24,000 nucleotides of DNA, from contig JAXLZY010000001.1 in NCBI GenBank assembly GCA_046350635.1, forward strand, positions 154,727-178,726. The letters are read 5' to 3'. Every line of letters starts with the position of its first letter. The stretch's first letter is position 1. Of this stretch, positions 927-21,323 are shown piece by piece. A program made the translations under genes and the position numbers. The notes below the pieces were generated by a model. It saw nothing but the letters and a program-made list of their open reading frames with translations, was not told the DNA's origin and did not search any database. The stretch is from Candidatus Saccharimonadales bacterium. GTDB lineage: Bacteria; Patescibacteriota; Saccharimonadia; Saccharimonadales; CAIOMD01.

Positions 927-934
927 CAATCCTC

Positions 935-1336: not shown

Positions 1337-1641
1337 TACACTTTTCCTATAACGAACGCTACAATTGCAGTCGCACTTAATGAAATTATAAGCCCAATAA
1401 CGGCATACACAATTGTCTTTCGGGCAGAAACAATTTTTTGTGGATCACCAATTGAAATAACATACTTAAAACCTGCTATAACTATCACAAGAAAGCTTAT
1501 TGCGGCAATTAGACCAAAAACAAAATACAATATACTCTGCAACTTAGCATCAGATGTAGTGGGTGATTTTGGTATACCTAACGAGTTTGGATCTCCCAAA
1601 ACTCCCGTTGCGACATAAATTAAGTTCTTAATTGGTTCCAT
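1336..1641 (-). CDS. Short VirB2/TrbC-like pilin paralog P3 (no obvious signal peptide, no Cys)
   Basis: 101 aa. It carries the conserved two-helix hairpin (LYFVFGLIAAISFLVIVIAGFKYVISIGDPQKIVSARKTIVYAVIGLIISLSATAIVAFVIG). The N-terminus (MEPIKNLIYVATGVLGDPNSLGIPKSPTTSD) lacks the basic-hydrophobic leader seen in the other five. Confidence 0.7.
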   Translation of the reverse strand: MEPIKNLIYVATGVLGDPNSLGIPKSPTTSDAKLQSILYFVFGLIAAISFLVIVIAGFKYVISIGDPQKIVSARKTIVYAVIGLIISLSATAIVAFVIGKV

Positions 1642-1649
1642 GAATACTA

Positions 1650-2147
1650 TTATGATACCTGTTTAGATAAGAAGGATGCCACAAATCTAACAATTTGGGA
1701 TGCGAGCAGGGCAATCACCAAACCAATGATGGCATTTAGTATAGTTTTACGGGCAGAAACAATTTTGTTGGGCTCGCCCTGAGAAACAACAAAACTAAAA
1801 CCACCGTAAATTACAAACCCAACAGCCACAACAGCCGAAAGACGAATTAATATATCCGTAATCGCTAATAAAATTAAAAATATTATCTTAAGCCCATCTC
1901 CGTCAGCCGGCTTAGTCTGAATTTCACATCCGGTATCCGTTTTAACTACATCTAAATATTCATACCAGGTCGGAATGCCAAATATAGTTGTTTTTTTGCC
2001 GCAGGTTGCATCTGCAGCGGCCTGTGCCGCAGCTGTTGCAGAATCTGCCGGAGGCTGTGGGGCGGCATAGGCCGAAACAGGTACAATGACTGCGTAAAAC
2101 ATAAAGAAACCAGCTAACACAAAACTTACGGGTAAGAACCGCTTCAT
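1650..2147 (-). CDS. VirB2/TrbC-like T4SS pilin paralog P2
   Basis: The track ORF extends to 2174, but the second ATG (2145-2147) is preceded by a perfect AGGAGGTG with a 7-nt spacer. It yields a clean signal peptide (MKRFLPVSFVLAGFFMFYAVIVPVSAYAA) and forms a TAATG overlap with the stop of the upstream gene. It has a Cys pair (DATCGKK...DTGCEIQ) and the conserved hairpin VVAVGFVIYGGFSFVVSQGEPNKIVSARKTILNAIIGLVIALLASQ. Confidence 0.8.
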   Translation of the reverse strand: MKRFLPVSFVLAGFFMFYAVIVPVSAYAAPQPPADSATAAAQAAADATCGKKTTIFGIPTWYEYLDVVKTDTGCEIQTKPADGDGLKIIFLILLAITDILIRLSAVVAVGFVIYGGFSFVVSQGEPNKIVSARKTILNAIIGLVIALLASQIVRFVASFLSKQVS

Positions 2148-2737
2148 TAGAACGCACCTCCTGGTATTAACCATTGCAAGAACGCATACAAAAATATAAA
2201 TGCGGCAAGCCCTAATACGACATTTGCAATTCGTGTTTTAGCCGCCTGAACAGCTTGTGGATTATCGCGAGCAGCCGAATATTGTAACCCTCCAACAATA
2301 ATCATTAGCACTGCCCCTATACCTATAATTCCTGCAAAAATATTAATCGCCACTTTGAGCCACGTGATAATCGGGTTGTTATCCGTTGAATATTTCTCTG
2401 AGTTTGGATAAATACTACCAACGGTAACAGATTGGGCAACCGCAACTGGTTTAACAAGAACTTTTGTTTTGTCTTTGGCGCAAGCAGTATTCGTTTTACA
2501 TACTGCTGTAATGTATTTTTTATACGCGGCTTGGCCACACGCGGTATCATCAGCTGCACACTTTGCGACATCGGCAACATAGGTTGCACACTTGGCATAA
2601 TACGGCTCCTTAAGGCTTGCGCAATAATCTGTGCCATTTTCTGGAGCAGGAGCGGCCTGTGCCGTAACGCCAACCATAACGAAAAATGCAAACGTCAGCG
2701 GTGCGAGTAGGATATATTTTAATGCTTTTTTATTCAT
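2147..2737 (-). CDS. VirB2/TrbC-like T4SS pilin paralog P1 (largest, six-Cys head; first gene of the pilin operon)
   Basis: 196 aa with signal peptide MNKKALKYILLAPLTFAFFVMVGVTAQAA. Six Cys lie in an Ala/Lys-rich head (DYCASLKEPYYAKCATYVADVAKCAADDTACGQAAYKKYITAVCKTNTACAKD). The hairpin is more divergent but recognisable: IFAGIIGIGAVLMIIVGGLQYSAARDNPQAVQAAKTRIANVVLGLAAFIFLYA. Confidence 0.7.
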   Translation of the reverse strand: MNKKALKYILLAPLTFAFFVMVGVTAQAAPAPENGTDYCASLKEPYYAKCATYVADVAKCAADDTACGQAAYKKYITAVCKTNTACAKDKTKVLVKPVAVAQSVTVGSIYPNSEKYSTDNNPIITWLKVAINIFAGIIGIGAVLMIIVGGLQYSAARDNPQAVQAAKTRIANVVLGLAAFIFLYAFLQWLIPGGAF

Positions 2738-5726: not shown

Positions 5727-5737
5727 ATGAGTAGTGT

Positions 5738-6874
5738 ATGGCTGTATATAAAGTAATACAAGATATTGAGGCAGAAGATAAACTCCTTGGGCCATTAACT
5801 CTCAAACAGTTTATCTTTGCGGTTATTTCTGCTGGTTTTGTGTTTGTAGCTTTTATTGCTGTTTCAAAACTTGGCAATATATTAGTTGCTATACCGTTTT
5901 TACCTTTTATCTTAGTATTCGGCGTACTAGCCGCACCACTTGGGCGCGATCAACCAACAGATGTGTGGTTGGCGGCTCAAATTCGTTTTTTTACCAAACC
6001 CCGCAAGCGCATTTGGGATCAGTCTGGTATTAAAAACTTAGTTACCATTACCGTCCCTAAAAAGATAGAAAAGATTTATACCGATGGCTTAAGCCAGCAA
6101 GAGGTTAAAAGCCGTTTGCAAGCGCTCGCCGAAACAATTGATAGCCGCGGCTGGGCCGTAAAAAACGTCGCCGTTAATATGTATGCTACCCCAGCCTATG
6201 CAATGGCGTCTGACCGCCTTGTCGACCCTTCAAGCTTGCCACAAGCCGTACCGACAACTGATATAACAGCAGCCGATGACATCATGGATGCAACCTACAA
6301 CCCGGTAGCACAACATTTTGATCAAATGGTACATGATGCTACTACGGCGCAAAAGAATGCTGCAATCGCACGAATGCAGCAGGCGATGGCAAGCCCTCAA
6401 GCTCCACCGCAAACAAACCAACAAGCCCCGGTTGACCCTTGGTTTATACATCAACCAGACCCGTCTGCAGTACCGCAAAATAGTGCAATGTTTAGTGCTC
6501 AAACCGTTGCTCCTGTAGCTGTAGCTACACAACAACCAGAAGATGGGTTTTTGTCTGAACACACCGAACAACCATCGTCGCCAGAAGAGGCCGAGTTACT
6601 CGAACATATAAAAGCCGAAAAACAGCAAGAGCATCAAGGTTGGGCACATCACAAGACTATTAAAACACCCGAAGAAGTCGCAGCCGAAGAAGCGGACCAA
6701 AAACAAAAAGAGCTAGAAGAAAAAGCAAAACAAGCACAAGCGGTGACACCCCCTAAAAACCCTGGTATAGTAGAACTTGCAAATACTAACGATCTTAGTG
6801 TGGCAAGCGTAGCGCAACTTGCGAAACGAAACAGCCAGAATGACGACGGAGAAGTTGTTATTAAACTGCACTAG
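5738..6874 (+). CDS. PrgI/VirB3-like small T4SS membrane protein fused to a ~230-aa disordered C-terminal tail
   Basis: The N-terminus AVYKVIQDIEAEDKLLGPLTLKQFIFAVISAGFVFVAFIAVSKLGNILVAIPFLPFILVFGVLAAPLGRDQPTDVWL matches the PrgI-family pattern as I remember it. That pattern is a conserved DIE..DK..G.LTL.Q motif followed by two TM helices. The gene sits immediately upstream of the VirB4 genes, as VirB3 analogues do. The remainder is Q/P/A/E/K-rich low complexity. Confidence 0.65.
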   Translation: MAVYKVIQDIEAEDKLLGPLTLKQFIFAVISAGFVFVAFIAVSKLGNILVAIPFLPFILVFGVLAAPLGRDQPTDVWLAAQIRFFTKPRKRIWDQSGIKNLVTITVPKKIEKIYTDGLSQQEVKSRLQALAETIDSRGWAVKNVAVNMYATPAYAMASDRLVDPSSLPQAVPTTDITAADDIMDATYNPVAQHFDQMVHDATTAQKNAAIARMQQAMASPQAPPQTNQQAPVDPWFIHQPDPSAVPQNSAMFSAQTVAPVAVATQQPEDGFLSEHTEQPSSPEEAELLEHIKAEKQQEHQGWAHHKTIKTPEEVAAEEADQKQKELEEKAKQAQAVTPPKNPGIVELANTNDLSVASVAQLAKRNSQNDDGEVVIKLH

Positions 6875-6894
6875 GGTGGGGCAACGCACAGTAT

Positions 6895-7764
6895 GTGTGC
6901 GTCGCTATGCGCGATATGAATCCAGATACACAAGGCACTATTCCTAATCAATATTCTCAGCCCGGTATACAACCGGGTGGCTATTCTCAACCGCAAAATT
7001 CGGGCGTACCGCCTCAGCAGCAAGCACCTGTAGCCCCCGTTAAATCTAACCCAAATAGTACCCAAAACACACTGCTCATTAACGAAATCCGCGATGGCGT
7101 CGTTATTATGAGTGATGGCTCGTTTAGGTCGGTTGTCATGCTTAAAAGCATTAACTTCGACCTTATGAGCCCGCAAGAGCGTGAAGCAGTAGAGTATTCA
7201 TACCAGGGTTTTTTAAACTCACTGTATTTTCCGGTTCAAATATTTGTACGTTCACAAAAAGTTGACCTTGGGCCATATCTAGATAAGCTTGTTAAAATTC
7301 GTGGCGAACACGACAATATGCTACTTGCCATGTTAATGGATGATTACATTAATTTTATGGACAATTTAGCCGCGCAAACCAATATTATGGACAAAAAATT
7401 CTATGTTGTTATTCCGTACTTTCCTAATGTCGATACCCAAAAAGCCGTGCAGGCAAGTAAAAGTTTATTCTCGGGCTTATTTGGCCAAAAAGAACAAGCA
7501 ATTACTATCAACGAAGGTGACCTAGAAGCGGCAAAAACAGAACTCCGTAATCGCGTGCAGGCAGTGCTTAACGGCCTCATGCAGTGTGGGGTACAGGGCC
7601 TACCACTCGATACCCAAGAACTTATAGAACTTTACTACGATGCCTATAACCCTGATACGGCCACACGCCAACAGTTAAAAAACTTTAGTGATTTAACAGC
7701 GCCAGTAATAACAAAGGGCGAAGGCCAAGCCTATCAGCCTAACCTTGATAGGGAGATGAACTAA
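6895..7764 (+). CDS. VirB4 N-terminal-module-like protein (separately encoded), with Q/P-rich disordered head
   Basis: The ordered part is LLINEIRDGVVIMSDGSFRSVVMLKSINFDLMSPQEREAVEYSYQGFLNSLYFPVQIFVRSQKVDLGPYLDKL...NIMDKKFYVVIPYF. It resembles the extreme N-terminal region of Firmicutes-type VirB4 proteins (Tn916 Orf16/TcpF/ConE class), from my memory of the alignments. Its stop overlaps the VirB4 ATG (TAATG at 7762-7766). The start is uncertain: 6895 is a GTG, and in-frame ATGs lie at 6907 and 6916. Confidence 0.5.
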   Translation: MCVAMRDMNPDTQGTIPNQYSQPGIQPGGYSQPQNSGVPPQQQAPVAPVKSNPNSTQNTLLINEIRDGVVIMSDGSFRSVVMLKSINFDLMSPQEREAVEYSYQGFLNSLYFPVQIFVRSQKVDLGPYLDKLVKIRGEHDNMLLAMLMDDYINFMDNLAAQTNIMDKKFYVVIPYFPNVDTQKAVQASKSLFSGLFGQKEQAITINEGDLEAAKTELRNRVQAVLNGLMQCGVQGLPLDTQELIELYYDAYNPDTATRQQLKNFSDLTAPVITKGEGQAYQPNLDREMN

Positions 7765-9668
7765 TGGCTGTCTTTGGTGGTAAACAACCCAAAATTGACC
7801 CAGTGCTAATGGCTGAACAGCAACGAGCACTCGAACAGCAAGAGGTTCAGGCGGCATTCCAAAAGGGTGTAACAGCACTCCGAGATTTTATCGCACCAAG
7901 TTCCATCGAATTCCAGAGTAACTTCTTTCAAATTGGTACCCGTTATGCCCGCACCTACTACGTCTATGGCTATCCACGCCAAATCTACACTGGCTGGTTA
8001 AGCGGTATGGTTAATATCGATGAAGTGATGGATATGTCAATCTATGTCTATCCGGTAGAGAGCCAGGTTGTACTCGAGAATTTGCGCAAAAAAGTAGGTC
8101 AGCTCGAAGCCGGTTTACAGATTGACGCCGAAAAGGGTAAGGTCCGTGACCCAGGTAAGCAAGCTGCCATTATGGATGCCGAAGAGATGCGCGATAAGCT
8201 TCAGGTGGGCGAAGAACGATTCTTTAGGTTTGGTCTGTACTTTACGATCTACGCAAGCTCAATGGATGAGCTCGAATTTGTAAGCCATAAAATTGAATCT
8301 ATGCTCGGCCAACAGCTCGTGTACTCAAAACCAGCTAGTGCCCAGCAAGAGCAGGGGCTTAACAGCGTTTTGCCCCAGTTTATGGATCAGCTTCAAATTC
8401 GCCGCAATATGAATACCGGTGCTATTAGTACTAGCTTTCCGTTCACGAGTGCCGACTTAACAGATGACCACGGCATTTTATACGGCATAAATATGCACAA
8501 TAGTGGCCTCGTTATTTTTGATAGATTCAGCCTAGAAAACGGTAATAGTGTTGTGTTCGCTAAATCCGGTGCTGGTAAAAGTTTTGCGGTTAAGTTAGAA
8601 ATTTTGCGTAGCCTCATGATGGGCACTGAGGTTTTTGTGTTAGACCCAGAAAACGAATACCAACGCATGGCCGAAGCAGTCGGTGGTGCCTATGTAAAGC
8701 TTTCGCTTGGTTCACCAACACGAATTAATCCATTTGATTTACCTCGAGTTGTAGATACCGAAGAAGCTGATAACGCCTTGCGCAGTAACCTCATTACACT
8801 CCATGGCTTATTGCGCCTCATGATGGGTGGAGCTCAGGCACAACTGCTTGGCAATGCAGGGCAAATGGCACCAGCGCTTAGCCCCGTAGAAGAAGCCGAT
8901 TTAGATGCCGCACTTATAGAAACCTATGCCAAGGCAGGCATCACTAATGACCCGCTTACGCACACAAGTGTTCCGCCGACAATCAGCGACCTGTACGATA
9001 CCTTATTACATATGGGCGGAACAGGCCCGCAACTGGCGCAACGACTCCGCAAATACACAACCGGTACCTTTGCGGGTATTTTTAGTCAGCAAAGTAATAC
9101 CGATATCAATAATCCTTTTGCGGTCTTTAACATTCGTGACTTAGAAGATGAGCTAAGGCCGGTAGCTATGTATATTGTTCTTAACTTTATATGGAACAAA
9201 ACTAAGGCAGATCAAAAGCGTCGCATTTTAGTAATAGACGAAGCCTGGCAATTTATGAAGTACGAAGATAGCGCCAGCTTTATCTTTAGCCTCGCAAAAC
9301 GTGCCCGTAAATATAACCTTGGTATCACTACTATCAGCCAAGACGTAGAAGACTTTATTGGGTCGCGCATGGGTCGCGCAATCGTTGCTAACGCTTCAAT
9401 GCAGCTACTCTTAAAACAAAGCCCAACTGCTGTCGACATGCTCGCAGACGTATTTAAGCTAACGAGCGAAGAAAAGAAACGCTTAAGCCAGTTCCCTGTC
9501 GGGCAAGGACTGTTTTTTGCGGGCCAAAGCCACGTACATATCCAAATTATGCCTAGCCCAACCGAAACAAGTCTTATCACAACCAACCCCGAGCAAGTCA
9601 AAGCTATTGAGCAACAGGGTCAGATACCGCTATCAGGTAACGCGACCGGCGAAATTAACGGATTTTAA
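7764..9668 (+). CDS. virB4: VirB4-family T4SS ATPase (TraE/PrgJ-like)
   Basis: 634 aa. Walker A is FAKSGAGKSFAVK (Lys codon 8577-8579) and Walker B is RRILVIDEAWQF (Asp-Glu 9237-9242). Downstream motifs are ARKYNLGITTISQDVEDF and ANASMQLLLKQ. The N-domain pattern is YARTYYVYGYPRQIYTGWLSGMV...DMSIYVYP. GGGAG lies 8 nt upstream of the ATG. Confidence 0.9.
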   Translation: MAVFGGKQPKIDPVLMAEQQRALEQQEVQAAFQKGVTALRDFIAPSSIEFQSNFFQIGTRYARTYYVYGYPRQIYTGWLSGMVNIDEVMDMSIYVYPVESQVVLENLRKKVGQLEAGLQIDAEKGKVRDPGKQAAIMDAEEMRDKLQVGEERFFRFGLYFTIYASSMDELEFVSHKIESMLGQQLVYSKPASAQQEQGLNSVLPQFMDQLQIRRNMNTGAISTSFPFTSADLTDDHGILYGINMHNSGLVIFDRFSLENGNSVVFAKSGAGKSFAVKLEILRSLMMGTEVFVLDPENEYQRMAEAVGGAYVKLSLGSPTRINPFDLPRVVDTEEADNALRSNLITLHGLLRLMMGGAQAQLLGNAGQMAPALSPVEEADLDAALIETYAKAGITNDPLTHTSVPPTISDLYDTLLHMGGTGPQLAQRLRKYTTGTFAGIFSQQSNTDINNPFAVFNIRDLEDELRPVAMYIVLNFIWNKTKADQKRRILVIDEAWQFMKYEDSASFIFSLAKRARKYNLGITTISQDVEDFIGSRMGRAIVANASMQLLLKQSPTAVDMLADVFKLTSEEKKRLSQFPVGQGLFFAGQSHVHIQIMPSPTETSLITTNPEQVKAIEQQGQIPLSGNATGEINGF

Positions 9669-9679
9669 ATAAAACGCTA

Positions 9680-9708
9680 TTGCTTTTTTAGCAATTTATT
9701 GCTATAAT
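9680..9708 (+). promoter_or_regulatory. Candidate sigma-70-type promoter for the distal half of the locus
   Basis: TTGCTT (9680-9685), a 17-nt spacer, then TGC-TATAAT (extended -10; TATAAT at 9703-9708). It lies just after a weak AT-rich hairpin (ATTGCT-TTTTT-AGCAAT) downstream of the virB4 stop. Confidence 0.5.
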
Positions 9709-9724
9709 ATGCATATTAATTAGG

Positions 9725-10663
9725 ATGCTTTTAATGTTTTCTTCGAAAAATTCCTACGCAGATACAAAAGCTAACAAGCGAGTGGCTGCTGGTGCGATGA
9801 TACTCGCAGGGGCACTAGCCTTAGCTGGCTGCGGAAACTCTGATAATAATGCCCCGTCATCACCAAACACACAGCCCGTTGCTACTGCGACCCCCTCAAC
9901 CCCAGAAAGTCCAACAGAGACGCCATCAGTAAGCCCAACTACTTCACCTGAAAACGTTGTGCTACAATTCGATACTGATAAATTACCCGTAACCCCCAAA
10001 AATTATTCCGAAGCTCGCGAAACATTAGAATTTCTTATCGATAAACAAGTAGACAAAAACCTTCGATCTAAATTATGGGATGCAATCGAATCAAATAACG
10101 CCGAATATTTCAATAAACTTAGTATTTCTAAAGAAGATGTTGAAGCAAATCTTCAGTATTACGAAGAATACCTAAAAACATTGGATATAATCGCAGACCA
10201 ATTCAGCGAAACTCCTGAAGCACGCATACCCATAAAATCGAATCGCCTCATGGGCGAAAGTATGGTTATTGTGTTACGAGAACTTCTGTCGAGAAACGAT
10301 ATTGTTTCTAAATTGCAAGACAAAGCATCTGATATAAATGTAACTACTTTTTCTAAAAGAACTCGGGTGGATAATTCACCTATTACATCAGTTGCATTTA
10401 CAATTGCAAAAGTTGGCAAAGATCCCGAAGCTTGGAGCGCAGGCTACCATAACGAAGACGGCTCATTAAAAGTAATAACCGACGACATGATAATCGTGCA
10501 AGAACAGTTAAAGTTCAATCCAGCATCAGATTCAATGCAGTCAGAAGTACTTTCTCGAATTGTATATACCACTGTTAACAAGCTCGGCTCACTATGTATT
10601 GCAAAGCTTAGTGGTTTCGATACACACTGTGACGCACAAGTTGCAACCCATTTTGCTGAATAG
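9725..10663 (+). CDS. Lipoprotein of unknown function (T4SS-associated by context)
   Basis: Lipobox LALAGC with the Cys codon at 9830-9832, preceded by KANKRVAAGAMILAGA. A Pro/Thr/Ser-rich linker (PSSPNTQPVATATPSTPESPTETPSVSPTTSPE) precedes a ~230-aa domain I do not recognise. An alternative ATG at 9734 has AGGA 8 nt upstream. Confidence 0.7.
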   Translation: MLLMFSSKNSYADTKANKRVAAGAMILAGALALAGCGNSDNNAPSSPNTQPVATATPSTPESPTETPSVSPTTSPENVVLQFDTDKLPVTPKNYSEARETLEFLIDKQVDKNLRSKLWDAIESNNAEYFNKLSISKEDVEANLQYYEEYLKTLDIIADQFSETPEARIPIKSNRLMGESMVIVLRELLSRNDIVSKLQDKASDINVTTFSKRTRVDNSPITSVAFTIAKVGKDPEAWSAGYHNEDGSLKVITDDMIIVQEQLKFNPASDSMQSEVLSRIVYTTVNKLGSLCIAKLSGFDTHCDAQVATHFAE

Positions 10664-10742
10664 CCTGTAGCCTCTTTCATGCCATTACCATTTTGCTCAA
10701 AAAAATGGTAAAATAAACAGTATCATTTTGTGAAAAACTAAG

Positions 10743-13700
10743 ATGCCAAATGCTGTTTATGACGATGAGAAGGAGCGCACGGCTAATCCTGATTCTAGCC
10801 TTGTTAATGATAGCAACGAAACAGCTCAAACGGCATCTGATTCATCTTCGGATACAAACTTAGCTGATAAAGAATCAGATGCCGCAAAAAACGATACGTT
10901 TGACGAACCGCCAACAGCTGAAAAAAGTTTTTATAACCCAATGGGCGATAAGCAAAATTCACTCAAGTCTTCATCGACTTCAATCGTTTCAAATATAGCA
11001 AGACGGCGCGTAATATTAGGTGCCCTAATTCCAATAGGTCTAATTCTTATTGTTCTTTTTTTGATGAGTGCCCTTAAAATTCCAAACTACGCCGCAAATA
11101 TTGCAACCTATAGATTCGCTCGCTCAGCGATGGAATATGCTAAAACATCGTCAGAGATTGATGGAGCAAAAATTGCCATAGAAACAAGCGATGATACAAA
11201 ATACGGCAAATTCAGAGAAAAGTACGCAAATCTAAGATCAGCAACGTGGGGGAAGTTTGATCAGTACCGACCAGAAAAGGTGTATCAAAACCTTAAGGCA
11301 GACGGAACGATAAAGTACGAGGTAGAAACCAAAAAATGGAAGGGAATCGAAACCCGTACAAAAATCACAGCGGTTATTATTAATAACGAACGAATTCCCG
11401 TAGAAAGCCAAACATTCAGACAACGTTTTGGGAGCCCAGTAGACTCTTACAGAGATAGGTTGAAGTATTCTAGGGCAGTTAATGCACAAATTAGTGAAGC
11501 GTTAAAGGGTTCTAGTACACTCGTAAGAAGCTCGGTGGCCAAAAAAATACGTGCAGATTTAAATATTAAGCTACGATTTTGGGAAAAGGGTGCCAAAAAC
11601 TATAGTGGCCTTAAGCCAGATGAAGCCGACCAATTGTTACTTAAAGAAAATGACGAAAGAATACGCACCAAACCAACTGGCACGGCAACAACGAGCTCAA
11701 TAAACGAAGCGACCGATAAAGTAGACAATGCTATCAAGGACTGTATTGACGATGCCGACTGTGCCAAGGAGATGGCGAGTGGTGAAAACCCAGAAAAAAT
11801 AACCACCGCATTAACAGAATCTGCCGACGAAGGCATTGTAAGAAAAGCTCTTGGTATTATTAGCCCAACATACGGGATTGTTGTGCCTGCTTGTATGATT
11901 TACGATGGCTCGATTGATCACGCATCTGATGCAATCGATGCGCAAACTGCCAGCACCATTAAAACCTACAACACATTTGCAACTCAGGCTGACCAGCAAA
12001 AAGTCGGAGACACCTCTCCAGAGGCGATAGCTGCCGTCAATAGGAAATTAGCGGCTGGTGATTCGGTTCCCGATCAATACCTAAGTGGGCGCACGGTTGA
12101 TACATCTGTAGAAAAAAGCCCGCAAGCATCGGTGCTTGGCGACTTTACAATGTTAAACGCTTTAATACCAAATCAAACCGTGGCAAATGGTTTAAATACT
12201 ATCGCAGAGCCAGTATGTAAAACCTTAACCAATGTAGGAGTTAATGCAGCTATTGCTGGAGTGAGCATTGTAATAGCTATCTTTACTGGCGGGACAAGTG
12301 GTGCCGCTGAAGGTGCCGGAAGTCAAAGTATTCGCGCCATTGTCACCGCAACCCTAGAAAAAGGCTTTCTTAAAACGATAGTTAAATCAGCAGTTGATAA
12401 GGTTGCGACAATTGAAGGCAGAAATCAACTTAAGGGTTTTAGTAAGAAATTTGCTCGAGATTTTGTGGCTATAGAAGGAGCTACCGCTCTCACAAAACTA
12501 TTAGTAATGTCACGTTCAGGGCTTATAAATAATGGCGCTACATCAAGTGGTGCTGACTATATTAATCAGGCAGATATGGGTGCGGTAAACGAAAACAACA
12601 TCTATATGCAACAAATGATGTATGGTGCACCAATGACGAATGCAAACACCGCACTTGCCGATAAAAGCGCAACAACTTTATTAGCAGAAAAAGAGTCCCA
12701 GGCTCCGGGGCTTGGCAAGTATTTTGGGATTACTTCACCCGTTTCAAAAATCAGAAACAATATGGCTATTGGCTTTGCGAGTATGAAGCAAAGGGGACTA
12801 TCATCAAGTTTGAAATATTTCAGTTTTGGCTCGGTCTTAAAGTCGATTATTCCAAATCAAAATGTGAGTGCCGCAGACACCTCAGGAGCAAACTGGGGCA
12901 TCGTTCAATGGGGTTGGACAGACGAAGAAAACGCTTTAATTGCCCGCGATTCATCGTATGGGGTAGTTGAAAATGAAGCTGCATTATCCGATCAAGTTCG
13001 TAGTGTGGTAGAGTCAGAATATGGTAAGTGTTTTTCAAGTACTATGGGCACCTTGCTTGGTTCGGGTGACATTAAAAGAAATGAGTCGGGGGATGTGGTA
13101 ACAAATGACGGTTTGTGTTCGCCAGAAAACCTCGGCCCAAAGAACCCTAAGTACGGCGATGCGGTATTTAGGTGGCGTCTTTCTAAAAAGCGCGAGATGG
13201 TATTAGATCAAAACCTTGGGCTACAAAACCCATCAAAAGATGGTAAAAGCGATAGTGGTGGAACTGTAGGTGGTGGCGGGAGTTCGGGTGGTCAAGGCAT
13301 GAGTGCCGACGAGGTTTTTGCGCAATGTAAAAACAATACCGCAACCGGCAAAGTAAAAATTGTTTGCGGGACCACCGAACTAAATGGGGTACCCTACGGA
13401 GAAAACTTCGTAAGCGCCTGGAAGGATGCTAAGCCATCTCCGTTAGGTTGTAATTCATACGCCAATATAGCAATTGCTCGTGCAACGAACGGAAAATATC
13501 GCAAAGATTATTGCTCGGGTGGATACGAAAAAGAAGGTGCGCGTGAAGGTAATTTCAAAAAAATCGCCAAAACTGCCGTTCAACCCGGAGATTTAATCAT
13601 TCACGACCGCTTGGGTGGTGCGTCATGTGGTGGCACGAGTGGAGAGGGCCACGTTGAAGTTGTTGTTTCGTACGATCCCAAAACCGACAAACTTATTACT

Positions 13701-13808
13701 ACAGGAGCCCACAGTTCAAGAACACCGTCAGGTGTCACCGATCCGGTTAACCTCAAGAATAGTGACTATTGGGATTACGGCGTTGAGTATGTCGGAGGTG
13801 GCTTGTAA
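10743..13808 (+). CDS. Large membrane-anchored protein with C-terminal CHAP/NlpC-P60-like cysteine peptidase/amidase domain (PrgK/TraG/Orf14-like cell-wall hydrolase or effector)
   Basis: 1021 aa. An acidic disordered N-terminus is followed by a TM helix (VILGALIPIGLILIVLFLMSAL) and ~740 aa that I cannot assign. A Gly-rich linker (GGTVGGGGSSGGQG) leads to the last 170 aa (nt 13296-13805). That region has a candidate catalytic Cys (PLGCNSYANIAI, codon 13449-13451), PGDLIIH, and GHVEVVVSYDPKTDKLITTGAHS. The order is the Cys...PGD...GHV...(polar) order typical of CHAP domains. Confidence 0.65.
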   Translation: MPNAVYDDEKERTANPDSSLVNDSNETAQTASDSSSDTNLADKESDAAKNDTFDEPPTAEKSFYNPMGDKQNSLKSSSTSIVSNIARRRVILGALIPIGLILIVLFLMSALKIPNYAANIATYRFARSAMEYAKTSSEIDGAKIAIETSDDTKYGKFREKYANLRSATWGKFDQYRPEKVYQNLKADGTIKYEVETKKWKGIETRTKITAVIINNERIPVESQTFRQRFGSPVDSYRDRLKYSRAVNAQISEALKGSSTLVRSSVAKKIRADLNIKLRFWEKGAKNYSGLKPDEADQLLLKENDERIRTKPTGTATTSSINEATDKVDNAIKDCIDDADCAKEMASGENPEKITTALTESADEGIVRKALGIISPTYGIVVPACMIYDGSIDHASDAIDAQTASTIKTYNTFATQADQQKVGDTSPEAIAAVNRKLAAGDSVPDQYLSGRTVDTSVEKSPQASVLGDFTMLNALIPNQTVANGLNTIAEPVCKTLTNVGVNAAIAGVSIVIAIFTGGTSGAAEGAGSQSIRAIVTATLEKGFLKTIVKSAVDKVATIEGRNQLKGFSKKFARDFVAIEGATALTKLLVMSRSGLINNGATSSGADYINQADMGAVNENNIYMQQMMYGAPMTNANTALADKSATTLLAEKESQAPGLGKYFGITSPVSKIRNNMAIGFASMKQRGLSSSLKYFSFGSVLKSIIPNQNVSAADTSGANWGIVQWGWTDEENALIARDSSYGVVENEAALSDQVRSVVESEYGKCFSSTMGTLLGSGDIKRNESGDVVTNDGLCSPENLGPKNPKYGDAVFRWRLSKKREMVLDQNLGLQNPSKDGKSDSGGTVGGGGSSGGQGMSADEVFAQCKNNTATGKVKIVCGTTELNGVPYGENFVSAWKDAKPSPLGCNSYANIAIARATNGKYRKDYCSGGYEKEGAREGNFKKIAKTAVQPGDLIIHDRLGGASCGGTSGEGHVEVVVSYDPKTDKLITTGAHSSRTPSGVTDPVNLKNSDYWDYGVEYVGGGL

Positions 13809-14368
13809 TGAATGCGTTGCAAATTCTTATTAAATATAAGGTGCTAATTATTAGTTTGTTCACCTTTATTTTAATAACATTCATTGTATTTAAATTTGCC
13901 CCAGTGACGGTTGTAAATCCTGAACCAATTAATAATATGTATATAAATAATGTTCATGCCGAGGCTTTAAAGGTAAGTACAACATCGGGGAAAAAACGAA
14001 TCGGATTTAGTAATCCCACAACTGTATATAAAGAAGAAACTGTTTTCTTATGGCCGTTCCAGACATATACTCCTAAATATTCTGGTGAAAAGCAGAATAC
14101 TGCATCTATATTAAAAGAGTCTGGATACACAGATATAGCTGAATATCCATTTATTTCAGAGAAGTATTTTTCACAAAATAGATGGTTGGTAGTCTACGAA
14201 AAGAGTAGCGGTGGCTTTGACACAACGCGGGTTGTGGGTGTATTAAAATACAGCTCAAAATCTGGATTATGGGAAGTGGTCGATCGCAGCTCAAGCCTAC
14301 ACGAGGACTGGTGGGATAGCATAATGCCAGACGAGATATTAAACTACATAGAAAACGGTGGTAGGTAG
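13808..14368 (+). CDS. Small N-terminally anchored protein of unknown function (candidate immunity or VirB8-like component)
   Basis: 186 aa with a TM anchor (VLIISLFTFILITFIVFKF) and a ~150-aa extracytoplasmic domain. There is a strong GGAGGTG 7 nt upstream, and the ATG overlaps the upstream stop (TAATG at 13806-13810). It is AT-rich: my hand counts of three 60-nt lines give about 28-37% GC. Confidence 0.6.
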   Translation: MNALQILIKYKVLIISLFTFILITFIVFKFAPVTVVNPEPINNMYINNVHAEALKVSTTSGKKRIGFSNPTTVYKEETVFLWPFQTYTPKYSGEKQNTASILKESGYTDIAEYPFISEKYFSQNRWLVVYEKSSGGFDTTRVVGVLKYSSKSGLWEVVDRSSSLHEDWWDSIMPDEILNYIENGGR

Positions 14369-14369
14369 C

Positions 14370-16985
14370 ATGGCTATCTTGGGTTTACTTGGATTTGAAG
14401 CAATAAATAGACGTCGGCTATTGCGTTCGTTTGTATTACTTTTTGTTCTATTCGGCTTTATCTTCTCAACGTTATATTCACAAATATCGTACGCACAAGG
14501 TATAACAGTGAGTGATCTTAACGCCATACTCGAAAAACATCCAAACTATGACCCTAATGCGACTGATTGCCAAAACGTAACCCCAGCACTTCAAACAGTA
14601 ACAACAAATAAATCTGTGTATGTAATTGGTGATTCTTACCTTAGGGATTCAGCCACACTACTTACAACCAGCTTAAAAGCATCTGGTTACGAGACGGTAA
14701 CAATCAATGGTCATGGTGGTCGTGGTATTAACCGACCTGCAAACGATGGTGCGCCCGCAGCTTTAACCGCCATCGAGCAAGATAAAGATAAAATTGCATC
14801 TGCAGGTACGATAATTATTATTCTAGGTACGAATCCTTCTGACGCAGCAACTCCACCAGGTCCAATTAATGCTTACGATTCTTCAATACCTGTTTTTATG
14901 AAAAAATTAACTGGCTATAATGCTCAAGCTCGTATTTTCTGGGTTAATACTGATCACCTTGATACTCAGAGAACGGTATTAATTAAACCAACAAACACAG
15001 CCATCGAAAAATACTCGAGTCAGTTTTCGTATAAAGTTGTCGATTGGTATAGCGCTTTAGAAAAAACTACTAAAAAACAGTACTTAGACCCTTCTTCAAG
15101 CTACCTACACCCAAACACGACAAAAGGGTATCCACTTTTTGTAGACACAATTAAAGCGAGTGTGGGCAGTCCTATTACCTCATACCAAGACTCCTCAAAC
15201 GCACCGTCGGTAGCTAGCAACTCAGTAAACCTTAAATTATTGACAGATGTACAGGAAAAAAATAAACCAAATGTCCCTATTATCTGGAATTGGCTCCGCG
15301 CAAAAGGATTTAGTGAGGTTCAGACTGCCGGAATTATGGGTAATATTTATCAAGAAAGTAAGTTCCAGATAGACCTTTGGGATCCACCTGCATACGGCTT
15401 AATTCAATGGCAACATGAACGCCTAGATCAATTAAAAAAGTTTGCCTCTAATCGTAATATTCCTCTTGATAATATCGATACCCAGATGCGTTTTATGATG
15501 ACCGAGTTAACGAGTAAGACTGGTCGATTTTATGAACCGGTTTATCTACCACTGAAAAAGACTACCGATTTAGCGACAGCAGTTAATTTAATGCTTGAGC
15601 ATTACGAAGAGCCAGGGGATTACGAAACCGAGCGCCCATTACGACTTAAGTGGGCAAAAGAAGTACTAGAAACTATGGGTGGAAGTGCCGTTTCAACACC
15701 CACTCCAGCACCAACTGATGGAAAAACAAATTGTGCCCCCGTGACAGGTAATTCCTGTGAGTCAATTTTGCTTCCGACAATTATCGACCCCAGTAAGTTG
15801 GGAAGTGCCATAGATAAGTATATTAGCGATGTCAGTAAATCATATAACGGCAAAAAATCACCATTTGACGGCCTTGGTTCAAAGTTTGTAGAAGGGGGTA
15901 TTAAATCGGGTATTAATCCATTTATCGCAGTGGTTCACGCACACAAAGAATCTCTTTTTGCACTGTATGATGCAAAGGGTTGGCATAACTATACGTTCGC
16001 AACTAAAGAAGCTGCTGCGGCTGGGAATACCGCTCAGCTTTCTCCTTCGTATAATGCCTATGGTCGGTCTGCGGGCGGTGATCAGCCGACTGTTTGGTAT
16101 AACGGAAGTAATGGTCCACGCCCCGTCTATAAGTGGTCTTCTTGGGAAAATAGCTTAACGGGTGATGATAGTTTCTTTGCGTATTACAAACGCAAATGGG
16201 TAGACGAAAAAAAATACACCTCTATAGACGACATCATTAAAGAATACGCGCCAGCATCCGATGGCAACAACCCCTCAGAATACGCTTCTTTTATGCATAA
16301 TAATATTTCAAAACTAATCTCACTTGCCGGCGATTCTATCGACTGTGGTAGTGGTGGAGCTGGTGCCGGTGGTTCTGGTGGCACAAAACTTGACGGTAAA
16401 GAAACTGTAAAACTTCAATATGGGTACTACGTTAAAGATGGGGGTGATCCGAAGATGATTTACTATAGCCAATACGACGCTAGATATAATGGCGCAGAAG
16501 GTAAGAAGATATACCCCAGCTATGACAGAACAGATCTAGGACCTTTTGGCCAGTGTGGATGTTTTTCAACCAGTATGGCGATGGCAATAAACACAATCGG
16601 AGCCAATAAAAACATTAATCCTCTTGATATCGGAAAAGAAGTGCTAGCGGCCGGCGTCAACGCAGGTGGTTGTGGGTACAGTGGCGAATCTGGCTTTGGT
16701 GAAAAACTTGGTCCAAAATTTAATGTTTCGATTAAGTCTACAAACTCATTCACGGTTGCAAAACAAGGTTTACGTGATGGCGGATTGGTTGTGTTAAGTG
16801 TTGGACCTTCTGAGTTTACGACGGGAAGTCACTATATAGTTTTAAGAGGTTTGACGAGTGATGGTAAATTTGCTGTTGCTAATCCAACAAACAAAGACCA
16901 GACACTAACTGGTACATACACTGAAAGCCACATAAGTAGTATCTTTAATGGTAGCGGAAAGATGTGGGTAGTAAGTGCTAAGTGA
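14370..16985 (+). CDS. Four-module secreted/anchored peptidoglycan hydrolase (SGNH esterase + phage-tail-lysozyme-like + GH73 glucosaminidase-like + C39-like cysteine peptidase)
   Basis: The track start 14358 is a GTG inside the previous gene. The ATG at 14370 follows GGTGGTAGG, so I prefer it. Residue numbers below use track numbering. N-terminal TM: FVLLFVLFGFIFSTLY. Module 1 (aa ~86-265): VYVIGDSY, NGHGGRG, ILGTNPSD, YLHPNTTKGY (SGNH blocks). Module 2 (aa ~305-437): TAGIMGNIYQESKF...YGLIQWQHERLDQLKKFA...DTQMRFMMTEL...LEHYEEP (phage tail lysozyme family pattern). Module 3 (aa ~475-655): INPFIAVVHAHKESLFA...NAYGRS...FFAYYKRKW (GH73-like). A Gly linker (GSGGAGAGGSGG) leads to module 4 (aa ~683-875): YYSQYD...GQCGCFSTSMAMAI...GSHYIVLRGLTSDGKFAVANP (Peptidase_C39-like pattern). 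Confidence 0.7.
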   Translation: MAILGLLGFEAINRRRLLRSFVLLFVLFGFIFSTLYSQISYAQGITVSDLNAILEKHPNYDPNATDCQNVTPALQTVTTNKSVYVIGDSYLRDSATLLTTSLKASGYETVTINGHGGRGINRPANDGAPAALTAIEQDKDKIASAGTIIIILGTNPSDAATPPGPINAYDSSIPVFMKKLTGYNAQARIFWVNTDHLDTQRTVLIKPTNTAIEKYSSQFSYKVVDWYSALEKTTKKQYLDPSSSYLHPNTTKGYPLFVDTIKASVGSPITSYQDSSNAPSVASNSVNLKLLTDVQEKNKPNVPIIWNWLRAKGFSEVQTAGIMGNIYQESKFQIDLWDPPAYGLIQWQHERLDQLKKFASNRNIPLDNIDTQMRFMMTELTSKTGRFYEPVYLPLKKTTDLATAVNLMLEHYEEPGDYETERPLRLKWAKEVLETMGGSAVSTPTPAPTDGKTNCAPVTGNSCESILLPTIIDPSKLGSAIDKYISDVSKSYNGKKSPFDGLGSKFVEGGIKSGINPFIAVVHAHKESLFALYDAKGWHNYTFATKEAAAAGNTAQLSPSYNAYGRSAGGDQPTVWYNGSNGPRPVYKWSSWENSLTGDDSFFAYYKRKWVDEKKYTSIDDIIKEYAPASDGNNPSEYASFMHNNISKLISLAGDSIDCGSGGAGAGGSGGTKLDGKETVKLQYGYYVKDGGDPKMIYYSQYDARYNGAEGKKIYPSYDRTDLGPFGQCGCFSTSMAMAINTIGANKNINPLDIGKEVLAAGVNAGGCGYSGESGFGEKLGPKFNVSIKSTNSFTVAKQGLRDGGLVVLSVGPSEFTTGSHYIVLRGLTSDGKFAVANPTNKDQTLTGTYTESHISSIFNGSGKMWVVSAK

Positions 16986-17502
16986 TAAACTCAAACAACT
17001 ATCGGACGAGCAAAAAAAACAACTGCTAATTATCGGTGTGGTGATTCTTGTAATACTGTTTTTTGGAGTTATCGGATTCACGAGTGGCTCTGGGAATAAT
17101 AATACAAGTGTAAAAAAAGATGCTTATGGCGATTTAATCGAAACTAAGATTTCTGGTCAACCAATAGAATCAAAAGACGACACTTTTGTTATACGATTTA
17201 ATGATTTTCTTACAAATAACGTATCACCCCTACAGCTTGATGCACTTAAAAAATCAATTAGGTTTTATATATGGGACACTATAAATAGTGATGAGACTAA
17301 GGCTGTTTTTGACGATGGTAAATTTGAATCTCAGGGTGAATCTAGTATCTATACGGTGACAGTAAGAACAAACAACAATACTACAAAATTTACAATTAGA
17401 ATGAAGATAGATAATAAACTAAATATTGTGTCTGCGACTGCGGATTACAATGGAGTATCGACAGATTTATCAGTCACTCCAAGAACGACTAACCAAGACT
17501 GA
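16975..17502 (+). CDS. Small N-terminally anchored protein of unknown function (second candidate immunity or VirB8-like component)
   Basis: 175 aa. The GTG start overlaps the upstream gene by 11 nt, and there is no in-frame ATG before the TM helix. The TM anchor is LLIIGVVILVILFFGVIGF, followed by a ~130-aa Asn/Thr/Asp-rich domain. It is AT-rich: sampled 60-nt lines give about 28-38% GC. Its 3' end overlaps the convergent recF by 14 bp. Confidence 0.55.
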   Translation: MLSDKLKQLSDEQKKQLLIIGVVILVILFFGVIGFTSGSGNNNTSVKKDAYGDLIETKISGQPIESKDDTFVIRFNDFLTNNVSPLQLDALKKSIRFYIWDTINSDETKAVFDDGKFESQGESSIYTVTVRTNNNTTKFTIRMKIDNKLNIVSATADYNGVSTDLSVTPRTTNQD

Positions 17503-19670: not shown

Positions 19671-19940
19671 ATTAGTATCTCCATTACTTATTTATATAAG
19701 ATAGTTATAGTAGTAGGCCCTGTGGATTGGTGTGCATAACCACCATTAACAGATATAAATTGCAGAAATTTTGTGTGCAAAACTGTGTGCAATCTGTGTT
19801 CAAAATAGGTGTATAAAAATTCAGCTAAATTTTTTACAAACAAAGTCTGTGCATTATGTGCATAACCATAGGTGGTTGTTCGCAGGTTATTACCAGCCTT
19901 ATTCGCAGATCTTCCACAGTATAAGAAAACATTCATCAGG
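19671..19940. promoter_or_regulatory. dnaA-dnaN spacer: candidate second half of a bipartite oriC (DnaA-box-like sites plus AT-rich tract)
   Basis: TGTGCATAA occurs at 19731-19739 and 19857-19865, one mismatch from TGTGGATAA. TGTGGATTG is at 19721-19729 and TCTTCCACA at 19910-19918, each two mismatches. An AT-rich tract spans ~19811-19845 (GTATAAAAATTCAGCTAAATTTTTTACAAA). TGTGTKCAA occurs three times at 19772, 19784 and 19795. Confidence 0.5.
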
Positions 19941-21323
19941 CTATGCATAGAGGCGTTCCTTAATTTCTTTGACGTGTTCTTTTAAAAGCGTATCAAAATG
20001 GAGTTCTTTTTCTATCTTTTCAACCGAATGTATTGCAGTAGTGTGGTCTTTACGGCCAAGTTCATGAGCAATCTTAGGAAAACTAAGGTGTAGTTCACTC
20101 CGTAGTAAGTACATAGCAATCTGACGTGGTACCACAATGTCTTTATCACGCTTTGCGCTCAAAATCTCGTCGACACTAAGCTGAAAGTGCTTAGCGGTCT
20201 TTTCGACAATTTGTCGGGCATTCATATGTTTTGGTCGTGAACGGTGTGTACCAAACAAGCCGGTTGCAATGGTAAGGTCGGGTTGAAGCCCTCGCATTTC
20301 ACAAAACGCGAGTAATTGGTTTAAAGCACCCTCTAGCTCACGAATATTAGTCTGAACTTGGTTTGCGAGGTATTCGACTACCGTCTGGTCTAATACTAAC
20401 CCGTGTTGATTAGCTTTATTTTGTAAAATTGCACAGCGGGTTTCAAAATCAGGTGCACCAATATCAACAATCATTCCCCATTCAAATCTGCTACGCAGTC
20501 GTTCTTCTAGGGTAGGGATAGATTTTGGTGGTTTATCGCTACTGATAATAATCTGTTTATTGGCCTGGTGGAGTGCGTTAAAAGTATGGAAGAATTCCTC
20601 CTGAGTCTTTTCTTTACCAGCAATAAACTGCATATCATCAACAATTAATACGTCTGCATTTCGGTAATGACCAGCAAAGTCAGTAACTTTTTTGTAACGA
20701 ATCGCATCCAAGAACTCTTGCACAAACTGTTCACTCGTTGCATATACAACATGCGCATCTTTGTTGTTGGCAAGCACTGCATTACCAACTGCCTGAATAA
20801 GGTGCGTTTTACCAAGCCCTACGCCACCATATACAAAGAGTGGGTTGTATTTTGTGCCTGGGTTTTGGGCAATCGCCTGGCAGGCGGCATACGCAAGTTC
20901 GTTACCCGAACCAACAATAAACGTATCAAACGTATAGCGTTCGTTAAGGCCTTGTCTGTACGAATGTGTAACAGATGGCGCACCATTACCAATCATCGAT
21001 CGGGTTTCAGGTGCTTCAACAGGTTGCGATAGTATAACTACCTCGGTGTTATCAATGGGCTGTTTGGTAGGGGCTACACCAGAATGAATCTTAAACTCAA
21101 CATCAATTACGGTCACACCGTTCTTTTCGAGTAGCTCGGTAATAAGTGGTTTGTACTTAGACTCTAATTGTTGTTTTGCAAAGATATTTGGCACCCCAAC
21201 CACAATCAAATCTTCGTTTCGTCGTAGTACACGGGTGTTTTTAAACCATGTTATATAACTACCACGTGACACGGTAAGCTCAATCTCGCCAAGAACTGTC
21301 TGCCAGAGCGTATCGTCCCCCAT
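19941..21323 (-). CDS. dnaA: Chromosomal replication initiator protein DnaA
   Basis: Walker A is YGGVGLGKTHL, with further motifs LIVDDMQF, IISSDKPP and RSRFEWGMIVDI. The C-terminal DNA-binding signature is RQIAMYLLRSELHLSFPKIAHELGRKDHTTAIHSVEKI. The track start 21335 is a TTG abutting GGGAGG with zero spacer. The ATG at 21321-23 (MGDDTLWQTVL...) lies 12 nt after the SD and is my preferred start. Confidence 0.95.
   Translation of the reverse strand: MGDDTLWQTVLGEIELTVSRGSYITWFKNTRVLRRNEDLIVVGVPNIFAKQQLESKYKPLITELLEKNGVTVIDVEFKIHSGVAPTKQPIDNTEVVILSQPVEAPETRSMIGNGAPSVTHSYRQGLNERYTFDTFIVGSGNELAYAACQAIAQNPGTKYNPLFVYGGVGLGKTHLIQAVGNAVLANNKDAHVVYATSEQFVQEFLDAIRYKKVTDFAGHYRNADVLIVDDMQFIAGKEKTQEEFFHTFNALHQANKQIIISSDKPPKSIPTLEERLRSRFEWGMIVDIGAPDFETRCAILQNKANQHGLVLDQTVVEYLANQVQTNIRELEGALNQLLAFCEMRGLQPDLTIATGLFGTHRSRPKHMNARQIVEKTAKHFQLSVDEILSAKRDKDIVVPRQIAMYLLRSELHLSFPKIAHELGRKDHTTAIHSVEKIEKELHFDTLLKEHVKEIKERLYA

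Follow-up and report, generated by a model that had tools for sequence, protein, structure and literature searches.

A small membrane-anchored protein family associated with NlpC/P60-type hydrolases of the type IV secretion operon in Saccharibacteria

The window studied here, a stretch of 24,000 nucleotides from a Candidatus Saccharimonadales metagenome-assembled genome (MAG; contig JAXLZY010000001.1, positions 154,727 to 178,726), carries a chromosomal, dnaA-proximal type IV secretion system (T4SS) operon. In the distal part of this operon, two large peptidoglycan hydrolases of 1021 and 871 amino acids (H1021 and H871) are each followed by a gene for a small, N-anchored exoprotein (S186 and S175, named after their lengths), which is probably translationally coupled to the hydrolase gene; the two small proteins appear to differ in role. 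A preliminary description of this DNA had proposed a hydrolase with a cognate partner for both pairs. This was borne out for the first pair, in which S186 tracks the C-terminal NlpC/P60-type domain of H1021 (termed CT1) across loci and carrier proteins and co-evolves with it, and not for the second, in which S175 occupies a universal terminal slot. Overall, we interpret S186 as a dedicated, immunity-like partner of the NlpC/P60 module and S175 as a generic terminal-slot protein, a reading to which we assign a probability of roughly 0.45.

Linkage of S186 to an NlpC/P60-type domain

For comparison, a scan with VirB4 yielded 80 Saccharibacteria loci that end at recF-dnaN-dnaA (approximately 500 genomes carry this VirB4), and the 57 non-redundant genome loci spanning VirB4 to recF were used for counts of gene order and presence; individual loci are cited by L numbers. 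The order in these 57 loci is constant: a large membrane protein (800–1300 aa), a second anchored hydrolase (380–1040 aa), one or two anchored non-hydrolase proteins and recF. The large transmembrane (TM) protein directly follows VirB4 in nearly all related loci. By contrast with this order, the hydrolase ends are diverse: the last 200 residues of both proteins gave 35 sequence clusters across the 57 loci, including M23, VanY, CHAP, Amidase_5/NlpC-like, NlpC/P60 (CT1) and C39_2-like (CT4, the end of H871) types. Thus, the enzymatic ends are exchanged between lineages.

The window sequence of H1021 alone had no Pfam match and remained below threshold for NlpC/P60. A profile made from its last 169 residues and 12 relatives from other loci (13 members in total) matched the PDB entries 6b8c (8e-6) and 7cfl (6e-5), followed by CwlO, Spr/MepS and Tn916-like hydrolases. 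Among the 13 members, nine were matched by Pfam NLPC_P60 and four by CHAP, and Cys903 and His970, the candidate catalytic residues, are invariant across the alignment. As judged from profile and conserved Cys/His, the C-terminus of H1021 is a peptidoglycan peptidase of the NlpC/P60 (papain-like) type; the earlier label 'CHAP-like' was roughly right, NlpC/P60-type being the better one.

Thirty-eight of 45 distinct S186-family proteins are encoded directly downstream of a gene ending in CT1 (34 from the main adjacency count, two at L088 and L090 and two at L092 and L110). S186 follows CT1 whichever protein carries the domain, either the large protein (window, L001, L062, L085, L088, L089) or the second hydrolase (e.g. 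L010, L031, L035, L048, L059). Seen from the CT1 side, the S186 gene comes next in 8 of 11 genome loci. A metagenome scan from this side with a five-member sub-alignment gave 37 loci; among the 31 domain-bearing genes with T4SS context, 27 were followed by S186 and the remaining four by a gene for an approximately 470-aa protein of another family, F7. The co-occurrence counts for the S186 family and CT1 were 9/2/4/41 (Fisher p=4e-6), the family being absent from most loci that lack CT1. Seven further contigs were found via remote homologs; in six of them the protein followed a CT1 end (terminal motif GGGL), the genes overlapping by 1 or 4 nt, whereas in one it came after an M23-like end. Overlaps of 1 or 4 nt are also the commonest spacing between CT1 gene and S186 gene in 34 homologous pairs. 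In the loci found from the CT1 side, S186 and recF are separated by a further anchored gene, which was F1-like wherever a classification was possible (F1 being one of the terminal families described below); this argues that S186 is an extra gene added together with CT1 and not the universal terminal gene.

Distances within the two families point in the same direction. In a mirror-tree comparison over 22 loci, CT1 and the S186 core correlated with r=0.615, compared with 0.26–0.27 for the correlations with recF; the partial correlation was r=0.585 (Mantel p=5e-4). Direct reading of the sequence confirmed both gene junctions given in the preliminary description. The H1021 stop codon (TAA, 13806–13808) overlaps the S186 start codon (ATG, 13808–13810) as TAATG, and the GTG start of S175 at 16975 overlaps the H871 stop codon (TGA, 16983–16985) by 11 nt, an overlap that is likewise present in the ortholog locus L001. 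Thus, a coupled, co-oriented downstream gene is found at both junctions, and covariation of the partner with an enzyme domain independent of the carrier was found for S186 and NlpC/P60 but not for S175 and the C39_2-like domain. Taken together, the comparative data give good support to S186 as a dedicated partner of the NlpC/P60 module, and a gene for a cognate immunity protein or inhibitor would be expected to leave this comparative-genomic signature.

Several observations weigh against this reading. The loci in the linkage and co-evolution counts are not phylogenetically independent. The specificity has exceptions: S186-family members were also found behind M23-type ends (L006, L086), behind an F1 gene (L034, L039, L057) and, at L040, upstream of the domain gene. 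In four to five cases, an NlpC/P60-ending gene is followed by that of the unrelated, approximately 470-aa F7 protein instead, and no comparable extra partner accompanies the majority of the hydrolase domains at these loci (M23, VanY, CHAP). Together with the S186 members after M23 and F1, these cases caution against a simple picture of one enzyme and one inhibitor. Furthermore, we know of no immunity protein described for the known Gram-positive T4SS hydrolases PrgK, TraG and CwlT, and co-evolution and co-location fit an activator, a foldase or a docking subunit equally well. The F7 family itself (anchored; L030, L072, L106, L107, L113, L123) shows weak fn3/CarboxypepD_reg and Kelch matches and occupies the terminal slot; five of its six loci have an NlpC/P60-ending gene and no S186-family gene.

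In the favoured interpretation, S186 would be made from the H1021 mRNA via the TAATG overlap and inserted into the same membrane. Its approximately 95-residue alpha2-beta4 core would face outward and bind the NlpC/P60 module, most likely holding the peptidase inactive or confined; the wall of the cell itself and that of sister cells would be spared until the machine engages the host wall. S186 would then be a cis-acting, immunity-like inhibitor tethered to the membrane. The same linkage, coupling and co-evolution data show partnership but not its sign, and S186 could instead be a positive partner of the NlpC/P60 domain, i.e. a steric chaperone or foldase (cf. Lif for lipases), an activator or an adaptor for docking to the T4SS. 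NlpC/P60 domains normally fold and act alone, which we count against such a role, and nothing direct speaks against it. The equivalent small genes are essential in Southlakia epibionticum, as would be expected for a required assembly factor, but an essential phenotype is equally expected of an antitoxin-like inhibitor. On balance, we consider a positive partner unlikely, though well worth keeping in view.

Predicted folds and the terminal slot

A word-indexed homolog search with S186 retrieved only S186 itself, and an exhaustive HMMER search gave nine remote relatives. With the anchor trimmed, an iterative hidden Markov model (HMM) delimited a sharply bounded family (14 matches at or below 1e-25, the next at 0.004), which, going by these searches, is confined to Saccharibacteria and is present in 13 of the 57 genome loci. 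In short members (127–155 aa), nothing but the anchor and the C-terminal core is retained. Scans of S186 and S175 against Pfam, NCBIfam and PADLOC gave nothing meaningful, the profile of neither protein matched PDB sequences, and sequence similarity between S186 and S175 was not found. A single sequence superfamily of S186 and the F1 proteins was considered and rejected: the link came from an HMM that included the TM segment and was lost on trimming of the anchor as well as in profile-profile comparison. The residual similarity is weak and limited to the N-terminal beta-sandwich (E 0.004).

The AlphaFold2 model of S186 (10 sequences) was confident, with a predicted local distance difference test score (pLDDT) of 83.4 and a predicted template modelling score (pTM) of 0.71. 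In this model the anchor helix is followed by a beta domain of six strands (residues approximately 34–81), helices at 98–105 and 107–110, four strands between 115 and 161 and a pair of helices at the end. Searches of PDB and BFVD with Foldseek gave nothing significant overall; local matches, which were confident, linked the beta domain to carboxypeptidase-regulatory/prealbumin-like domains. Among the listed matches there was no NTF2 or VirB8 fold, and none was below E 0.02. The order of strands and helices in the core fits an alpha(2)-beta(4) two-layer fold; Foldseek listed no PepSY, BLIP or BT0923 match, and Pfam PepSY matched none of the S186-family members.

These results bear on the suggestion that the small proteins are the 'missing' VirB8-like subunits (NTF2-fold, N-anchored) of the PrgL/TraM/TcpC class, which the preliminary description had named as its alternative and had proposed to settle by fold prediction and Foldseek. 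In pCF10 and pIP501, small N-anchored proteins adjoin the VirB1-like hydrolase. S186 resembles PrgL, TraM, TraH and TcpC in being small, N-anchored, extracytoplasmic and placed beside a VirB1-like hydrolase, but differs from them in that its confident model has no detected NTF2 fold and its family is not universal in the lineage. In Pfam and NCBIfam, neither S186 nor nine S186-family homologs nor S175 gave a VirB8/TpcC/PrgL profile match at E up to 10. With this confident model, the lack of a VirB8-type Pfam match in 10 members, an occurrence in 13 of 57 loci and a tie to one enzyme domain, the VirB8/NTF2 alternative was dropped for S186. The outcome for S175 was different, since only non-significant matches to a poor model were obtained. 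No VirB8 has yet been found in Saccharimonadia, which speaks for the alternative, whereas a structure-based survey of the S. epibionticum proteome likewise found none, which speaks against it (PMC12102498). For the two small proteins together, we regard VirB8-like subunits as decidedly improbable.

S175 has a single homolog in 5.8 billion proteins, also when a profile was used as query: the 46% identical protein of the sister genome (L001). Whereas the S175 family is thus present in two genome loci, the position that it holds is universal and belongs to no single sequence family. In 56 of 57 loci, an anchored non-hydrolase protein occupies the terminal slot; these proteins belong to at least 10 unrelated sequence families, with F1 in 29 loci and F2 in 13, followed by F6, F7, F5 and others. 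Profile-profile comparison of S175 with all other terminal families showed similarity at the level of the anchor only. What follows CT4 varies between loci (F5, F9, F12 or F1). The S175 model was built from a two-sequence alignment and reached a pLDDT of 55.3; on this low-confidence model, Foldseek returned non-significant, partial NTF2-like matches of approximately 60 residues to 8vfq (which we take to be an NTF2-like design) and CTDH (prob 0.8–0.98, E 0.3–1). The model is too poor for these matches to carry weight; a VirB8-like fold is possible for S175, and the terminal-slot proteins remain candidates for a VirB8 equivalent. Position and the negative results give no support to S175 as a protein tied to the C39-like domain or as its cognate immunity protein. 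S175 is probably an extracellular accessory or structural part of the machine, and would be the version of this lineage of a fast-evolving anchored protein in the last slot of almost every Saccharibacterium operon.

The preliminary description had favoured effector-immunity modules for both pairs, as in the type VI (T6SS), type VII (T7SS) and Xanthomonas type IV systems, with the hydrolase as delivered toxin and the small protein as its immunity protein. Co-oriented overlapping genes, extracytoplasmic anchoring, fast evolution and polymorphic enzyme ends agree with this, as does the covariation of S186 with its domain; moreover, the terminal family is somewhat more closely associated with the adjacent hydrolase end (adjusted mutual information (AMI) 0.29) than with that of the large protein (0.06). 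On the other hand, S175 has no domain-specific linkage, since the C39-like end is followed by four unrelated families, most large proteins lack a downstream small gene, and orphan immunity arrays were not seen in the 94 related loci tabulated. Both hydrolases are anchored and hold a VirB1-like position in a growth-essential machine, which fits membrane-anchored machine components, i.e. VirB1 analogues, better than effectors shown to be translocated. At most, then, the pairs would provide 'cis self-protection', and we find the 'effector-immunity' reading improbable in its original form. The hydrolases, with conserved N-terminal parts and polymorphic C-terminal ends, resemble polymorphic toxins in architecture (L001–L082). 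It is possible, if somewhat doubtful, that the S186 family represents Saccharibacteria-specific membrane-tethered inhibitors, that the T4SS hydrolase ends behave like polymorphic toxins and that CT1 is swapped together with its cognate protector.

A further explanation is that both small proteins are fast-evolving surface proteins for host contact or host range and that S186 hitch-hikes with NlpC/P60, both being adapted to the same host wall type. The Ig/prealbumin-like beta-sandwich domains, the very fast divergence, a low GC content typical of weakly constrained genes and the replacement of the terminal protein by unrelated families are in line with it. However, the part of S186 that tracks the enzyme is the alpha/beta core and not the beta-sandwich, which the short forms lack, and adjacency with start/stop overlap together with a distance correlation well above that of recF points to a direct molecular partnership. 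This explanation appears most improbable to us.

The operon and its base composition

S186 and S175 match two NCBI proteins of a Candidatus Saccharimonadales MAG identically (U0491_00965 and U0491_00975 by locus tag), and the NCBI gene calls agree on lengths of 186 and 175 aa. The T4SS genes form a single operon on the + strand (2883–17502), in the order VirB6-like protein, PrgI/VirB3, TrsD-like protein, VirB4 ATPase, lipoprotein, H1021, S186, H871 and S175, so that the small genes and hydrolase genes make up its distal half (Table 1). VirB4, TrsD-like protein, PrgI/VirB3, VirB6-like protein, the pilin array and the dnaA-proximal position are the features of a patescibacterial MPF-FATA-like T4SS. 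The divergent pilin genes correspond to the VirB2-like array in published accounts of Saccharibacteria. Such dnaA-proximal systems have been described for Patescibacteria (PMC12102498), and that of S. epibionticum is essential for epibiotic growth (PMC10633639).

Table 1. Coordinates of the features discussed in the text (positions in the window)
Feature	Position	Strand	Basis and remarks
Five T4SS_pilin (VirB2-like) paralogues, divergent array	501–2737	-	Pfam PF18895, 1e-13 to 2e-6, all five
VirB6-like polytopic protein	2883–5726	+	Position and at least 8 TM segments (hydropathy)
PrgI/VirB3	5738–6874	+	Pfam, NCBIfam
TrsD-like protein (VirB4 N-terminal part), 289 aa	6895–7764	+	NCBIfam conju_CD1110, positions 7–119
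VirB4 ATPase, 634 aa	7764–9668	+	Pfam/NCBIfam, synteny
Predicted lipoprotein, 312 aa, lineage-specific	9725–10663	+	LAGC lipobox, Pro/Ser/Thr-rich linker
H1021, 1021-aa membrane protein	10743–13808	+	Open reading frame, hydropathy; TM approximately 90–108, hydrophobic patch approximately 498–520
CT1, NlpC/P60-type cysteine peptidase domain, residues 853–1021	13299–13805	+	Profile matches; invariant Cys/His
Shine-Dalgarno-like GGAGGTG	13794–13800	+	7 nt upstream of S186 ATG
S186, N-anchored 186-aa protein	13808–14368	+	TM 12–30; beta-sandwich approximately 34–81; C-terminal alpha2-beta4-alpha2 core
S186 family core, residues approximately 90–186	14075–14365	+	HMM coordinates of short members; part tracking the NlpC/P60 domain
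H871, signal-anchored multi-module peptidoglycan hydrolase	14370–16985	+	871 aa from ATG; 875 aa from alternative GTG 14358
SGNH/GDSL-like esterase module of H871 (weak)	14646–15119	+	Lipase_GDSL_2 7.8e-5, below gathering score; SGNH 0.012
Phage_lysozyme2 (phi29 gp13-like) muramidase module of H871	15279–15677	+	Pfam 2.6e-28; PDB 3csr 5e-4
Peptidase_C39_2-like (papain-fold) C-terminal module of H871, CT4	16461–16886	+	Pfam 1.1e-9 and 4e-10
S175, N-anchored 175-aa protein, last operon slot	16975–17502	+	GTG start; TM 17–35
recF, dnaN, small open reading frame, dnaA	17489–21335	-	Synteny, L001 Pfam families, BLAST mapping; bounds operon

H871 may begin with the ATG at 14370, one base beyond the S186 stop, or with the GTG at 14358. 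It had been described as a four-module hydrolase; three modules have sequence support (a weak SGNH/GDSL module, Phage_lysozyme2 and Peptidase_C39_2), and the fourth stretch, approximately residues 461–677, gave no family match in profile searches. H871 and H1021 are the positional equivalents of SEML1_0006 and SEML1_0007 of S. epibionticum, and the H1021 ortholog in L001 is 56% identical. In most related loci, the gene of the large protein is not followed by a small gene. In L004 and L005, which are among the closest loci (VirB4 89–90% identity), no hydrolase/small-gene block was recognizable after VirB4, which suggests rearrangement or problems of MAG assembly.

Kyte-Doolittle hydropathy confirmed one N-terminal anchor in each small protein. 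In the models the anchor helix covers residues 3–30 of S186 (two segments, 3–9 and 11–30) and 11–31 of S175, and the lysines that precede the helix suggest an N-in/C-out orientation. Both small genes had been called markedly AT-rich, at about 28–38% GC in the lines counted against 58% in one line of a hydrolase gene. The direction was correct, with GC contents of 0.358 (S186) and 0.339 (S175) compared with 0.436 and 0.414 for the H1021 and H871 genes and 0.427 for the whole window; the size of the contrast was not, the 58% being the value of a local line and not of a gene. Of 39 related loci, 37 had a lower GC content in the small genes than in the genes of the hydrolases (0.429 vs 0.484, Wilcoxon p=5e-11). 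The offset in S186 arises mainly at codon positions 1 and 2, and in S175 third-position GC is low too. Being this regular, the offset is a trait that fast-evolving genes show throughout the lineage and no sign of foreign origin; with the codon-position pattern, it led us to reject low GC as a mark of horizontally acquired cassettes. Two other short genes of the window are also low in GC (19688–19948, - strand, 0.345; 1336–1641, - strand, 0.356), so the AT-richness of S186 and S175 is not unique within it. Divergence along the operon was graded in one genome pair, where identity fell from 95% for VirB4 to 68% for H871, 56% for H1021, 46% for S175 and 31% for S186.

Upstream of the hydrolase genes, the 947-aa VirB6-like protein had no Pfam VirB6 match despite its TM segments; its C-terminal part (5300–5726) contains a long Gly/Ala/Pro/Asn-rich low-complexity tract (AGGGGNPARGGAPAPAAGGGGAPAGGNPAAGGGNRGQAGGN) close to the C-terminus. 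VirB4 is split into two genes (6895–9668), the stop of the TrsD-like gene overlapping the start of the ATPase gene at 7764. The lipoprotein between VirB4 and the large membrane protein gave nothing meaningful in Pfam, NCBIfam and PADLOC scans; among the 57 related loci, it was found in the window and the sister genome (L001/L003) only. At the other end, the S175 gene (+ strand) and recF (- strand) overlap convergently at their 3′ ends by 14 nt (17489–17502). This leaves no intergenic space for a terminator between the operon and the adjoining recF-dnaN-dnaA origin region.

Related systems and significance

Wall hydrolases under the control of a dedicated protein partner are known from Bacillus, for example SleB with YpeB, and the NlpC/P60 endopeptidases LytE, LytF and CwlO with IseA (YoeB). 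YpeB is N-anchored, is encoded directly downstream of sleB and contains small alpha-beta(4) PepSY domains; IseA is an inhibitor of NlpC/P60 enzymes of approximately 180 aa. Among secretion systems, the arrangement of H1021 and S186 resembles the T6SS Tae-Tai pairs (Tse1-Tsi1) and the X-Tfe/X-Tfi pairs of the Xanthomonas T4SS, in which a papain-fold or NlpC/P60-like wall hydrolase is followed by a co-oriented, co-varying extracytoplasmic partner, and for X-Tfi proteins protection against cis-intoxication has been documented (PMC10933484). Unlike those enzymes, the hydrolase of the window is a membrane-anchored component of a Gram-positive-type T4SS and not a soluble translocated effector. S186, whose neutralizing activity is putative, shows no similarity to known immunity families in sequence or, as far as detectable, in fold.

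The closest described system is the T4SS of S. epibionticum (SEML1_0004-0019; Wang et al. 2023, PMC10633639; Quinonero-Coronel et al. 2025, PMC12102498), which has the same order beside recF-dnaN-dnaA. Both systems comprise a pilin array, VirB6-like protein, PrgI, TrsD-like protein, VirB4 and a large membrane protein whose C-terminus is a wall peptidase, together with a multi-domain lysozyme/cysteine-peptidase protein that is followed by small exported proteins. They differ in that the large protein of the window ends in NlpC/P60 and not in a DD-peptidase fold, and in that the window has a small gene between the hydrolases and an extra lipoprotein after VirB4. At the positions equivalent to S186 and S175, SEML1_0004 and SEML1_0005 were scored as essential for epibiotic growth and annotated as Prealbumin-like+BT0923-like and Ig-like+OmpATb-N-like, respectively (PMC10633639 Tables S1, S2). 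The two-domain pattern of S186 agrees with the structure-based annotation of SEML1_0004, a counterpart by position and domain type only; on the same two grounds we infer orthology of S186 and S175 to SEML1_0004 and SEML1_0005.

The saccharibacterial T4SS was the first T4SS shown to be essential for the growth of its owner (PMC10633639, PMC12857230), and the operon as well as the essentiality of its distal genes has been published (PMC10633639). The distal genes are annotated only as hypothetical. In a search of the searchable literature, we found no description of the S186 family, of its cassette-like linkage to an NlpC/P60 end and its co-evolution with that end, or of the polymorphism of the hydrolase ends. 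A hydrolase paired with a cognate partner is a familiar concept; what is new is the S186 family and its occurrence in a T4SS that is of Gram-positive type and essential for growth. The field of candidates for the 'missing' VirB8 equivalent is narrowed, with S186 excluded and the terminal-slot proteins still included, and the hydrolase ends prove to be modular and exchanged between lineages. If S186 and its relatives are indeed inhibitors swapped together with CT1, the T4SS of these epibionts would carry weapons against the host wall that require self-guarding. In any case, a dedicated, co-evolving partner offers a testable handle on how an epibiont may cut the wall of its host and yet spare its own.

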